From assembly GCA_030141605.1 (NCBI GenBank), contig JAQGDQ010000293.1:230190-294189 (forward strand): 64,000 nucleotides of DNA. Direction: 5' to 3'. The notes under the pieces are model-generated. The model did no database searches. It saw only the letters and a list, made by a program, of their open reading frames with translations, and had not been told where the DNA came from. This DNA is from Tubiluchus corallicola. Its lineage: Eukaryota; Animalia; Priapulida. Position numbers and translations under genes: made by a program. Positions 10,473-16,400 of the stretch are shown in pieces (position 1 is the first letter of the stretch; each line of letters opens with the position of its first letter).

Positions 10473-13400
10473 TCATGAGTCTAATTTAGCTAGTTCACTG
10501 GTGTAGACGCCGATGCTTTCCATATCAAAGAGTACGAAAAAGATCTGTTTCAGTGATGATGACATGGTAGTTACGAAGTAATTCGAGATCGCTTTCAAGA
10601 TGATCTGTGCTGCCGTCTGCTTGGGAAAGCCATTACTACAGAAACATAACAATATAATGATTAATATGCAAAAAAACAGACAAGTTCTACATCAAATACA
10701 AATGAATAAAGTCAAAGCTGTTTAACCCTCATGTAAGGCCACATGAATTAATGTGAAGAATGAAGATGCTATGAGAAAAGTCCTGTCAATATGTGTGCCA
10801 ATATAAACCAGATTCATCTAGTTGCACAAACACACACAAAACTTTATTGCTGACTACTTTTCTCTGTACCCTGTGTTGTGACATTTTTAGATTAAACTTA
10901 GAACAAACTTAAATTAAACTATCTAAGTTTAAGCTAAAAATTTTGCAACACAGTGTACGGAAAAAAGCAGTCTGCAATAAAGTTTTGTGTGTTTGTGCAA
11001 ATAGATGAATCAGTTTTATGTTGCTACATAACAGGACTTTTAAACCAGTTAAAACTGGTTCATCTTGAAGATTTTAACTGAAACCTGGCAGGTGAGAAAA
11101 TGAATAAATTTTAGATAAATAATCACCTGTTATACTGTAAATGAAATTCAAGTTCGTGAATTATGAGTTTATAACTTGAACTCGTAAAGCAGTCCACAAC
11201 ATATGCCTAAAACATCTGACCATGGAAGTCATTTGTTAAAAACTAAACCGTTGACAATGGCTTATTTATGTATTACAAACAATGACGTTGGATCAGCATG
11301 GTTAAAAACAGTTGCAAATGCTATCATATTTATTTATTCAAATTATCTCTGTTAAGCTGAGGTATCTCAGTAATTACCATTGCGCTACAGAATATTATCC
11401 TAACTAAATATAAGAGTTTTGAGAAGTGGCTTATGCACATTAAATAACGTGCAAGTTTAAAATTTGCTCACAAAAGTCACTAAATCCCAAACTGTAAGGA
11501 CAGTATTCAAACAGAGTGTAAACCCGGTTATAACTCTCCCCTTTTATAATTCCAAGTTCGCTCGACGACAAAATTTTTATGAAAACAATACATCTATATT
11601 TGCATTGACATGTATGTATTAATGCACCTCGTAATGCTAAACACGCTATAATGCCAACTTAATTTGCAGTCCAAAAGTAGGCGGTATAAAGAGTGATATA
11701 TATTGATTTGTACACCAGAAAGTATTTATAAGATTAATAATAAAGTAAATAAATCTAAAATAAAAACTATGTTATTTTCTCTACTAGCCTTGCCTTTTCA
11801 TGTACCATTCTCTGTCAATAAGCTGATAAAAGTGCATTATTTCTATAAAATTGCATTTACATTTGCATATAGCCTGCATAATCCAACTAAATTTTTGATG
11901 TGTGCAGTGACGAAATATCAACATTGCAAATTAGTTCACTATAATTGTAGAAAATCAATAATTATATCTAAGACAAATACAAACAATGAAGAAAGCGAAA
12001 GCACAGCACAGCAAGCAGTGAGATCTTTTACCGTAGCAATGCCATTATAAATGTATGTATGAAAGAACTGTAAACCAGCAAACCTAAATGATCAGGTTTG
12101 TACGATAGAGAAGCAACTAGAAACTACAATAGTCTGCAGCAAACATTTTCACATCATACCATTTAGTTCTAGAAAATTAACTTAAAATAATCCGGATGTT
12201 TACAATAAGTAAAACAAACTTTGTGAACTTGATTTTGATACTCGAAAATTTGATGCAAAGGAGCTTTGAAAAATCAGGAAAATAAAAAATTATTTAACAA
12301 ATTTAATAAAAAGAATATCTTTGACAGCAACTGAAAAACTAATAACAAACAGTATGGCCAAGATTAAGGAGGTCCCTTTCCGAATGACTTTTCAACAAAT
12401 AGCTTCAAAATTAAAAATTAACATGCGGGACAAACGTTGTAAACGAAAATGAGGTACGCTGACAAGAGTTCATGTTTGTTACAAAATCTCACGCTTAAAT
12501 GTCACCCATCACTATTGAACACAGCAGTGACAGCACTCAAAAAGCAGCAGAAGGAAAAACAAAAACAAAACAAAAAGACATTTAATGATATAAAGAAAGA
12601 TGTATTCACACTGCAAAATGGCTTTATAGCTGCTTACACTATACAGATAAGTTTAACATGTCAATTTAGCTTATCAATTTCATATATAAAAAAACTGCAA
12701 CCAAAACCACGCGTGTAGTGCAACACCACAAACAAAGCACATTATGCCAAATATGGGTAAACCCAGCGGTGACAGACACATTTTTTGCAAACACTATCCC
12801 AGTGGCACAGGACACGATCTTTGCTTACCGTCCGCTGGAAATCGAAGGAATCGACAAAGATTTCAAACCCTTCTCTTCTGCCAAAACCAGACAATTTTTC
12901 ACTGTCTTCTCTAGTAGTTGTTGGGAATTAGCACTATTCCAGCTCGGGCTGTTACAGTGAATGATGTATCCAGCATTGAGGCTGGTGCATTGATCGATAG
13001 CGGCTGTAAAATTAGGTGACACTGTGACAAGTCTTTATCAAACATTGACATTTTCTGTAAATCTGTTAATATGCTAGAATATGGGCTACATTGTAAAACA
13101 GCAAAAACACCGCCTCCTCTTTCAGTTTTAGCAACTATTAGAGTTCTCATGACTTGGAAATCCTTAAATAGGCGAAAAGAGGAACTGTAGGCAGGAGTAG
13201 GTCAAGTGACCCAACGGCCATGTGTAGAGGAGTAAACTTTCCAAATCAGGAGTGGAGCCCCGAAGGCGGAAGAGTGGAGCATGCTCACAGACTCCGGCAG
13301 CTCCTGCAGCCAACCTGGTGCCAAACCTATCACTCCGTTTTCCTTGGGACTACACCAGCGAGGAAGAAAGGGGGTTCCTGTTGTCTGGGCAACTCAGGAT

Positions 13401-16400
13401 CTCCATACACCTTGCCCAGAGGCCACTCCAGTGTCACTGCTCCTGTGACAGAAACAACACAGGAGGCACCAGTTACAAATTATAAGCCTAGAGCGAACTG
13501 GCTTGAGGGCGCTATGGGCTGTCTAACTGCCGTTCAAGGATCGGGACTTCTCAGCCACACTCGACGCTGCAGCTCACATCAATGTGATCAATAACTGACT
13601 CTCTTGGCACACACTCTATTGTCTTCCGAGACAGAAGGAGGCAGGAGTAGCTCATCTCCTTGATATTTGCCTAATGGTATTAAAAATCACCACTCACGTG
13701 CAAAAAAAAGAAACTGATGATCTGACATGACAATATCCAGTTTTTGAGACAAATGCTATCGTAACTTTTCTGCAAATAGCAACAAACAACCTCTTTATGA
13801 TGAACGCACATCCTTCTATCCCATAATTCAATAGGTTTGTTAACAAATGAGTGAATATGTTTCAAAAACAGTCTCCACCAAATTCTGCCATGGTATAAAG
13901 GCTCATGTAAAATTATCCTCAGAATAAATACAGAAGTGCAAATTTAATATGCTGCTAATCAACTAAAAATTTAAACATATCCAAATGAGTGATGAGAATT
14001 AAACCAAGTGAAGACGATATCGAGTTAAACAACAAGGAAGATGCTACAAACCAAACTGTGATAAGGAATTATGAATTGACCGGCAAATACAGCTGGAGCA
14101 TAGAAGAAAAATAGACTCTACCAATAAATTTGAAATGTTAAGAAAAGATATTTAACATGATTTGAATATGAAAATGAATTTACTAACAAGTTAGGATACG
14201 ACGGTGCTCAAGGGTTGATCAAGAAAAACATAGTGGCCTGGGGATTTACATAAGCCAGTAGGAAGCGACAAGAAAGTAATTCTACTTAAAAGAACAGTAC
14301 CTTTATAATAACAAAACAAACATTAAGTACTATGCACTGGGCACTGTCTTTGTCGTAACCAGCTAAGCTAATGTTTGTAATGGAAACAACAAACCAACAA
14401 GAAAATTGAGCAAAAGCTGCTAAGGTTTCAGCAGTGCTTGACAGCTAATAACAATCGCAACAATGCTGACACCAGGTCAAGGTCAATTCAACAAAACAGC
14501 AAGGCAATCAACGAATGGTTGCCCATCAGGGGAGAACTAAACTGAGTCAAATTGCTCCTGGGTGGACTAGAATTAAACACATTGAAACACAGAAACGTAG
14601 ACTTGACATGAAAACCTGAAGTTGACCGGATGACCAACTCTGACCCATATAGCTAGGTAAGCGCTAGCCTACAATCAAATGAGGAGTACAAAAATAAATA
14701 AAGGGTTAATAGCTAGGTAAACTTAATCATCACTGCTGCTGTGCTGTGGCCTGCACCTCCGCCAGACTTACGCTCCATACGACATCGCAGGAACAGCAAC
14801 AGATTTTAAATTTTTCTCGTCTGCAAGGGCCATGCAGTTCCGTATGCATTTTTCCATTTGTTGCTGGGCATTAGTGCTGCCCCACTGTGGTGGGTTACAA
14901 TGTATGACGTGTTTGGCTAAGAAATTATGACCGCCACAAATAGCAGCTGAAACGTAAATAGTTAAGTAAGAAACTCACAAAATTGTCAAGATTATCTCTC
15001 TAATTGCCTGTTATCTCTTATAACAATGAAAAAACTGCAGCCATGTTAATTCTACTAAGACATTGGTTGAGCTAGCCTTAATTACGACAGTTGATACGAC
15101 AATTAAAACGATTCTACATCTAAACATGTTTTATGCATAAATAGTTCAATATCTCTGTCTACTTTTTCACTGATGCAAAATCAAAAACTTCTGAAAATTA
15201 TTTGGTTCATTGTAACATTTTTGGCTGAGCTAGCCTTAATTACGACAGTTGATACGACAATTAAAACGATTCTGCATCTAAACATGTTTTATGCATAATT
15301 AGTTTAATATCTCTTTCTACTTTTTCACTGATGCAAAATCAAAAACTTCTGAAAATTATTTGGTTCATTATAACATTTTCACTTTGTACATCAATTTTTT
15401 ACAACAATTACTGCCGGTTTCATCTTCCGTAATTGTCCTGTGTTTTTCCGTTGCCTCACGGAAACATTCACAATTTTCGAAGCATTTGTATAGGTTTTAC
15501 ACATCAAATGTAGACACTGGAAAGTTCTAATGTGACTGCGGTAAGTCAAATGTAGACATAGGAATTTCGAATGTGTTTCGGTAACTCAAATGTGACTTAG
15601 GTAAGTCAAATGTAGACATAGGAATTTCGAATGTGTTTCGGTAACTCAAATGTGACTTAGGTAAGTCAAATGCAGACGTAGGAATTTCGAATGTGTTTTG
15701 GTAACTCAAATGTGACTTAGGTAAGTCAAATGTAGATGCGGTACTTTGAATAAATCGGTAATTAACTCATTTAAGTGCAAGTTACAAAAAGATAAACCAA
15801 AGATAGTCATCACCTCTTTCATAACTTTGAAAAATGCGTTGTTTATCCTCAAACTAAATTCTTTGATAAACTATAACGTCGGTAGAAAAGAATAAATTGG
15901 TTCCCACTTCCCAATGAACACTGAATCACTAATTAGTTTTTTAAGTAACGCATTACCACGGCATTAATGAATTTGTTTCTCACAAGTAACATTGTTTATT
16001 TTAAGAATTTATTGTTTTCTCTAACAGTTACAATGGTATAAAAAGTTTACAGAATATTAGTAGACCTATAAAGTTATTATTTTCACAGCAATTATTAAAT
16101 TAAGTTTAAAGGAGATTATTATATTTAACATCCTTAAGCTTTACCACCTATCCACATTTGAGATACCAATGTCACATTTGACTTGACATGTGTCTACATT
16201 TGATTTACCAAAAATGCTTAAGATTTCTTGAAAACCATTGTTAACACATTTGAACTACCTTAGTCTACATTTGAGTTACCAAGACACATTTGAATTACCT
16301 AAATCTACATTTGAGTTAACGCAGGTCTACATTTGACATGTAAGACCCATAGAACGTCAGTTAAAAGGAAAAACATCATTAGAAAACTCATCTCAAAGTT

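Follow-up and report, generated by a model that had tools for sequence, protein, structure and literature searches.

A tandem pair of alternative macro-domain exons in the macroH2A gene of the priapulid Tubiluchus corallicola

Background

Vertebrate MACROH2A1 (H2AFY) produces the histone forms 1.1 and 1.2 by means of two tandem exons of one gene, and a portion of the ADP-ribose pocket is not the same in the two forms (PMC8232725). Current accounts describe macroH2A splice diversity in vertebrates, place the alternatively spliced exon within vertebrate evolution and report that the ADP-ribose affinity of macroH2A fell during evolution (PMC12551714). Here we analyzed a stretch of 64,000 nt (the window) from the priapulid Tubiluchus corallicola (GCA_030141605.1, contig JAQGDQ010000293.1, positions 230,190 to 294,189). 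Its minus strand holds a complete macroH2A gene in which two adjacent homologous exons, here named A and B, encode alternative versions of one part of the macro domain.

The locus is like MACROH2A1 in that one gene carries two tandem exons and part of the ADP-ribose pocket differs. Unlike in MACROH2A1, the pair of the window and of other protostomes is a more downstream exon, its copies are equal in length and G224 is present in both isoforms. The region swapped in vertebrates (D203 to G224) is single and shared in the window; it lies in coding exon 5 (16601..16781, minus strand), which matches the sequence of macroH2A1.1 better than that of 1.2. A swap of the vertebrate type, replacing G224, was not found, and the segment that corresponds to the A/B exon is identical in the 1.1 and 1.2 structures. 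Since a different exon is swapped, the pair has an origin separate from that of the 1.1/1.2 switch. To this extent we agree with an initial reading of the window, made from its letters alone (the sequence-only reading), which had proposed convergent evolution of a splice switch. As a late echo of the vertebrate switch the pair is less well described: it appears to be old and protostome-wide, and it may be the older of the two. As in macroH2A2 (MACROH2A2), it is the phosphate-binding loop that is altered and through which ligand binding could change. MacroH2A2 is encoded by a gene of its own, however, and has proline insertions and an E in place of G224, whereas in the window the difference is a splice choice, without insertion and with G224 kept.

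The explanation that we favor, with moderate confidence, is that of a tandem 175-nt exon pair that is likely spliced singly and likely stems from a protostome ancestor. The two resulting macroH2As of 372 aa would both bind ADP-ribose, but with different strength.

Results and discussion

Structure of the exon pair and of the macroH2A gene

Exon A, the upstream copy (14772..14946, minus strand), and exon B, the downstream copy (12829..13003, minus strand), are both 175 nt long, run from phase 1 to phase 2 and are stop-free in the same frame. Each is preceded by AG and followed by GT, with the donors GTAAGT and GTAAGC, respectively, and both match Pfam Macro above the curated cut-off. In human numbering, exon A encodes P275, Y313 and A315, and exon B encodes S275, S313 and R315, ending in CG directly before its donor. 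Adjacent as they are, with splice sites intact, they are separated by an intron of 1768 nt (14771-13004). Either exon alone leads to a protein of 372 aa, while both together give 335 aa and neither gives 273 aa. Our re-derivation thus reproduced the sequence-only reading with regard to length, phase and the frameshift caused by both or neither. Its description of the splice sites as strong needs some correction. Both exons are GT-AG and open, but the acceptor of exon B, with 13 pyrimidines in 22 nt, is the poorest of the seven acceptors checked (range 13-16), and AGs are found at -20 and -31 upstream of it.

The encoded chain combines an H2A fold with a basic linker and a macro domain at its C-terminus, which identifies the gene as macroH2A; its identity to named macroH2As is 70-76%. 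The A isoform is 75.9% identical to a predicted protein of Priapulus caudatus and at most 70.3% identical to the other full-length proteins compared. The H2A fold is encoded by coding exons 1 (22344..22515, with the ATG at 22515), 2 (20571..20677) and 3 (19266..19523), the last of which also contains basic linker sequence. Exon 4 (18319..18381) holds the end of the linker and the start of the macro domain; all four lie on the minus strand.

Divergence, selection and probable use of both exons

Exons A and B agree in 27 of 57 residues and in 98 of 175 nt, and by codon position the identity is 31, 42 and 24 of 57. Synonymous sites are saturated (pS 0.78), with a pN of 0.34. When neutral drift of B was simulated at 0.3, 0.5 and 1.0 changes per site, 21%, 13% and 7% of 2000 copies were stop-free and identity collapsed. 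Furthermore, reads and contigs of two runs (X1 and X2) were compared with the window. Run X1 spans introns and is therefore likely DNA. One of its contigs covers 140 nt of exon B and 1033 nt of the following intron, with 22 differences, of which 20 are intronic and two, both synonymous, fall in B. Among the X1 differences listed, a single one lies in exon A and is synonymous as well. Both copies are thus under purifying selection, judged by pS/pN and by the listed X1 exonic differences, three of three of which are synonymous (few sites). For the related loci L005/L006, dN was 0 and 0.01 compared to a dS of 0.34 and 0.15. The sequence-only reading had proposed that the divergence reflects long maintenance of both exons; their frame, length and splice sites are intact despite the saturated synonymous distance.

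Taken as a whole, the sequence data and the predicted isoforms of relatives make it very probable that both exons are used, and used mutually exclusively. Several results weigh against this. None of the four possible junctions between exon 5, A, B and the last exon was seen in reads or contigs of runs X1 and X2. Contigs of run X2 map to exon 5 (16601-16757) and 3' of the stop codon and none to A or B, so that run X2 gives no evidence either way. No priapulid B-type protein was present among the matches listed, the best single-domain match reaching 69%. A search with B against 50% representatives returned no close priapulid match; its best short matches were fragments of vertebrate-type exons that end at the same Arg. 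On the side of use, the predicted protein of P. caudatus carries an A-type exon, 75% identical to exon A of the window.

Alternatively, exon B could be a remnant that this lineage includes seldom or not at all. In favor of this are the P. caudatus protein, which is of the A type only among the proteins compared (a cluster of 1), the long branch of B in our tree (0.66) with its divergent N-terminal end, and a metagenome locus (L017) in which a single copy between flanking exons shows that loss happens. We nevertheless regard it as very unlikely, given that frame, length and the two splice sites of B are intact although its synonymous sites are saturated, that only 21% to 7% of the neutrally drifting copies were stop-free, and that both X1 differences in B are synonymous.

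Occurrence of the pair in other animals

Predicted isoforms of the same species that differ only in this exon were found for Lingula (20 residues), Lineus (19), Tubulanus (23) and Pecten (13), that is in four of four spiralian pairs. These macroH2A isoforms are already in NCBI as automatic predictions without comment (there labelled X1/X2), and they show the same contrast of Arg and non-Arg in the same exon as the window. Ten further same-species isoform pairs, including those of tick, scorpion, locust, crinoid, sea cucumber and coral, showed no swap of this exon. Additionally, fused gene models of Strigamia (centipede), Paralvinella and Tegillarca contain two copies, of which the first is without and the second with the Arg.

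Metagenome contigs yielded 22 macroH2A loci, 18 of them animal-type. Both copies were present in five of the 18, most of the others being too short to judge; the copies of the five are all of 175 nt and in the same order as in the window. These five loci represent at most four animals, and one matches the Paralvinella model. In each of them the upstream copy ends in AA before the donor GTAAGT and the downstream copy in CG before GT, which makes an Arg codon; three of the five have CG followed by GTAAGC, as exon B of the window. The intron between the copies measures 283, 256, 66, 62 and 64 nt, as against 1768 nt in the window. Locus L017 covers both flanking exons and has one copy of 178 nt, which suggests the loss of one exon.

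The window pair fits this protostome pattern of an upstream copy without and a downstream copy with Arg315, both of 175 nt. From the sequences compared, the pair is present in molluscs, lamp shells, ribbon worms and annelids, and likely extends to centipedes. Among cnidarian, echinoderm, hemichordate and amphioxus proteins no second copy was found (best 120 matches per protein search).

The ecdysozoan case of the pair is new here. The literature searched contained no description of it; studies of macroH2A evolution or supplements outside that search could mention it. In the portions available, neither accounts of annelid histones (PMC12153100) and mollusc histones (PMC12210499, PMC5550673) nor PMC8714140, PMC9741552, PMC6189284 and a PARP9 preprint (10.64898/2026.08.12.744356) mention invertebrate macroH2A isoforms.

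Three minor observations concern the same exon. In the animal loci L009-L013 and L015-L018 the copy ends in a Gln codon, with the donors GTCAGT or GTTAGT. An intron-free macroH2A stretch with an Arg315 exon (L008:1-429) points to an mRNA or a retrocopy as its source. The coral proteins P0075/P0137 and P0125/P0139 differ by one residue at the exon end, which suggests that splice sites lie in tandem at position 315.

Probable orthology and age of the pair

The final tree comprised 59 rows and 57 columns and was rooted on sponge. It differs from the first tree of 50 rows by ten additional order-defined rows and by the omission of one long-branch row (P0156). A single branch with a support of 97/86 splits 18 A rows from 20 B rows, many of these labels having been set by residue 315, which is outside the alignment, or by resemblance. 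Exons A and B of the window fall on the expected sides. The five upstream copies can be told from the five downstream ones by three columns, two of which place the window pair as expected. A profile classifier assigned 21 of 21 copies in a leave-one-out run and is given little weight because the labels were partly set by resemblance. On these data we consider the window pair probably orthologous to the spiralian pair and likely inherited from a protostome ancestor.

A number of results point the other way. In the first tree the A/B branch reached only 77/69 and window B stood in an open fork; the support rose after the row changes, with the bootstrap still unsettled (0.954). The approximately unbiased (AU) test did not reject a clade made up of the two window copies and P. 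caudatus A, with p-AU values of 0.39 and then 0.30. At column 16 both window copies are of the downstream type. Raw identity fails to sort window B, which shares 31-33 of 57 residues with upstream and 30-34 of 57 with downstream copies. Its profile score is weak (-4.9), and the profile misplaces or cannot place the tick and centipede copies.

The same exon might have been duplicated independently in the priapulid lineage, the likeness to spiralians being convergence. This would be in line with the AU tests and with C16, S312 and N316 in both window copies, and repeated duplication in orthologous genes is described as common (PMC9741552). Against it stand the same order of copies, the terminal CG with its donor, the two of three diagnostic columns and the 97/86 branch, as well as the same order in the centipede model. 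We judge independent duplication to be quite unlikely and common descent of the priapulid and spiralian pairs to be probable.

Beyond the protostomes, the B side of the sponge-rooted tree also holds sequences of amphioxus, vertebrates, insects, horseshoe crab and sea spider, and the A side those of coral, hemichordate, echinoderm, spider, scorpion and tick. With its 57 columns this tree is a lead, not proof, for a bilaterian origin. In such a tentative scenario, to which we give a minor chance, the A/B pair would go back to the last common bilaterian ancestor. Chordates and insects would have kept only the Arg315 copy B, and echinoderms and hemichordates only the older-type A, while vertebrates would have rebuilt the switch on another exon. 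Protostomes would still toggle between a histone of high and one of low affinity, relying on splice-site crowding in some lineages and, in priapulids, on an RNA duplex of recent origin. If this were true, the reported evolutionary fall in macroH2A ADP-ribose affinity would in part be the fixation of one old splice form.

A proposed splicing mechanism and a predicted RNA duplex

The splicing mechanism that we infer is based on two complementary intronic arms flanking exon B. The predicted selector arm (14725..14760, minus strand) covers nucleotides 12-47 of the intron after the A donor, with a Watson-Crick core at 14748-14726. The predicted docking arm (11991..12025, minus strand) is located approximately 805 nt into the last intron, its core being 12024-12002. 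On the transcribed strand, 14760-14725 and 12025-11991 form 33 pairs including G-U pairs (-49 kcal/mol), with a core of 22 Watson-Crick pairs and two bulges. The complementarity exceeds chance: the score was matched by one of 200 dinucleotide-shuffled intron pairs and the energy by none of 60 shuffled targets. The score at the A donor was 17, compared to 9-13 at six other donors. A 12-nt core of the duplex occurs at only these two sites in the 64-kb window, and the selector arm is locally unstructured (z +2.45). This predicted 33-pair duplex, from a selector after A to the last intron, is new here.

The same geometry is known from Drosophila srp, in which the upstream exon depends on a downstream stem (PMC4691838). 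Docking sites in a downstream position have also been reported for 14-3-3 zeta, Mhc and MRP1 (PMC6071210). As in srp exon 4.1/4.2 and these genes, the selector of the window follows the upstream exon, the docking site follows the cluster and the downstream exon is looped out in the predicted structure. Unlike in srp-type systems, the window shows no upstream pairing, and the arms are known here from the sequence of one species. In the proposed mechanism, pairing of the selector arm with the docking arm would loop out B and join A to the last exon. With the arms unpaired, B would be used and A skipped through a putative repressor.

We lean slightly towards the duplex being functional. What tells against it is that it was first noticed by eye and ten region pairs were scanned, that it was found in none of five distant two-copy loci, three of which have incomplete last introns, and that the best upstream pairing that could loop out A scored 10.5, which is chance level. 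The long inverted repeats found within intron 5 and within the last intron flank neither exon.

In transcripts that carry both exons, the reading frame ends at nt 50 of B, 123 nt ahead of the last junction. By the 50-55 nt rule of nonsense-mediated decay this makes them a likely target of the pathway, and the premature stop would lead to their removal. In transcripts lacking both exons the stop falls in the last exon, so that double-skip products would escape the rule.

Other ways of exclusion were considered as well. Incompatibility of U2 and U12 splice sites was rejected, as none of the three donors concerned (exon 5, A and B) shows the U12 pattern. Steric exclusion via a distant branch point is unlikely in view of the AGs at -20 and -31 of the B acceptor. 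Together with the 1768-nt intron, these AGs argue against a crowding of splice sites, in agreement with the sequence-only reading, which had discounted simple steric exclusion on account of the intron length. In the five related loci, in contrast, the A-B intron is 62-283 nt long (62-66 nt in three) and crowding could suffice. One exon pair may thus be kept exclusive by different means in different phyla.

Ligand pocket and predicted effect of the swap

Pocket positions were mapped on human macroH2A1.1 (P0195). Exon 5 supplies the equivalents of D203, I204, G224, E225 and V226, which is consistent with the ligand motifs that had been noted in this shared exon. The last coding exon (10473..10635, minus strand), which ends with the stop codon, supplies those of N316, F351, D352 and S355. 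These residues and G314 are kept in both isoforms. The alternative exon would supply position 275 and the phosphate-binding loop 309-315. Here A and B differ at 275 (P/S), 310, 311, 313 (Y/S) and 315 (A/R), and both have S at human G312. The loop motifs quoted in the sequence-only reading are all present; B is not exactly human, however, and shares the S for G312 with A. The greatest departure from the human pocket is that of A, with S275P, S313Y and R315A. Of the 187 full-length relatives compared, 182 carry S or T and none carries Y at position 313, and P275 was found elsewhere only in P. caudatus. Downstream copies always have Arg315, and upstream copies have Asn, or Ala in the window. S313 and G314 are both present in the spiralian upstream copies, which have no Arg315 and in this respect are like the single copies of coral and sponge.

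Binding is known to be lost by an acidic residue at 224, by an insertion at the adenine site and by proline insertions in the phosphate loop (PMC8232725). None of these inactivating changes, and no insertion, is present in either isoform. The idea of a sensing and a non-sensing form, put forward in the sequence-only reading, is therefore not upheld, all the more as B shares G312S with A. An on/off switch on the model of vertebrate 1.1/1.2, with B as the only isoform able to bind ADP-ribose, seems unlikely to us. It could draw on Y313 (with S or T in 182 of 187 relatives), P275 and A315 of exon A, on the altered loops of centipede and tick upstream-type copies, and on macroH2A2, whose loss of binding is partly due to this loop (PMC8232725). 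Yet the equivalents of D203, G224 and G314 are kept in both isoforms without any insertion, which leaves the on/off switch unsupported. Moreover, an ancestral pair of this kind is improbable in view of the spiralian upstream copies, in which S313 and G314 are retained and Arg315 is absent, as it is in coral and sponge. Residues 203, 314 and 352 are presumably ligand contacts.

The protein effect that we infer is one of tuning, which on the present sequences is likelier than on/off switching. The choice between A and B would reset the affinity for ADP-ribose and for ADP-ribosylated PARP1, and we find it reasonably likely that the isoforms differ measurably in ligand affinity. The priapulid A form is the likeliest to bind weakly or differently, judging from its pocket residues, and a loss of binding in A is possible. 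Arg315 may be one cause of the fall in affinity, and the protist protein of PDB 7NY6 reportedly has Asn at the position of mouse Arg315 and binds more tightly. Structure prediction from the P. caudatus sequence alone reached a pLDDT of 38.7 and was set aside.

The two exons might also both be used and differ in a protein-binding surface or in stability instead of the ligand pocket. Most of the 30 differences between A and B lie outside the pocket positions, and the conserved differences of spiralian pairs include columns 16, 22 and 29. The most constant difference, Arg or non-Arg at 315, sits in the phosphate loop, however, and we consider this explanation as improbable as the on/off switch. 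Under the preferred reading of tuned affinity, a second and older phosphate-loop switch in ecdysozoans and spiralians would mean that the link between chromatin and NAD metabolism was likely splice-regulated for most of animal history. The natural isoform pairs, 13-30 residues apart, could be used to probe ADP-ribose affinity and PARP1 capture.

As a separate observation, the GSG loop has disappeared from tick and centipede upstream-type copies (P0020, P0046, P0059 and P0006), and a genuine absence of binding is most plausible for these.

Additional features of the window

Several repeats are located in or near the gene. In the last macroH2A intron a 266-nt near-perfect palindrome (11041-10776) is likely a small non-autonomous transposon. 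Intron 5 contains two arrays of ~60-nt repeats (15486-15737 and 16150-16354) in opposite orientation and ~85% complementary. High-copy repeats are present at 13194-13640 and 19890-20371, with a very high summed depth in run X1. Divergent from macroH2A, an open frame of 513 codons with a helix-loop-helix domain is encoded on the plus strand (28066-29604). A further open frame on the minus strand (59150-58620) has no Pfam match; its start is reminiscent of phenazine-biosynthesis-like (PBLD) proteins.

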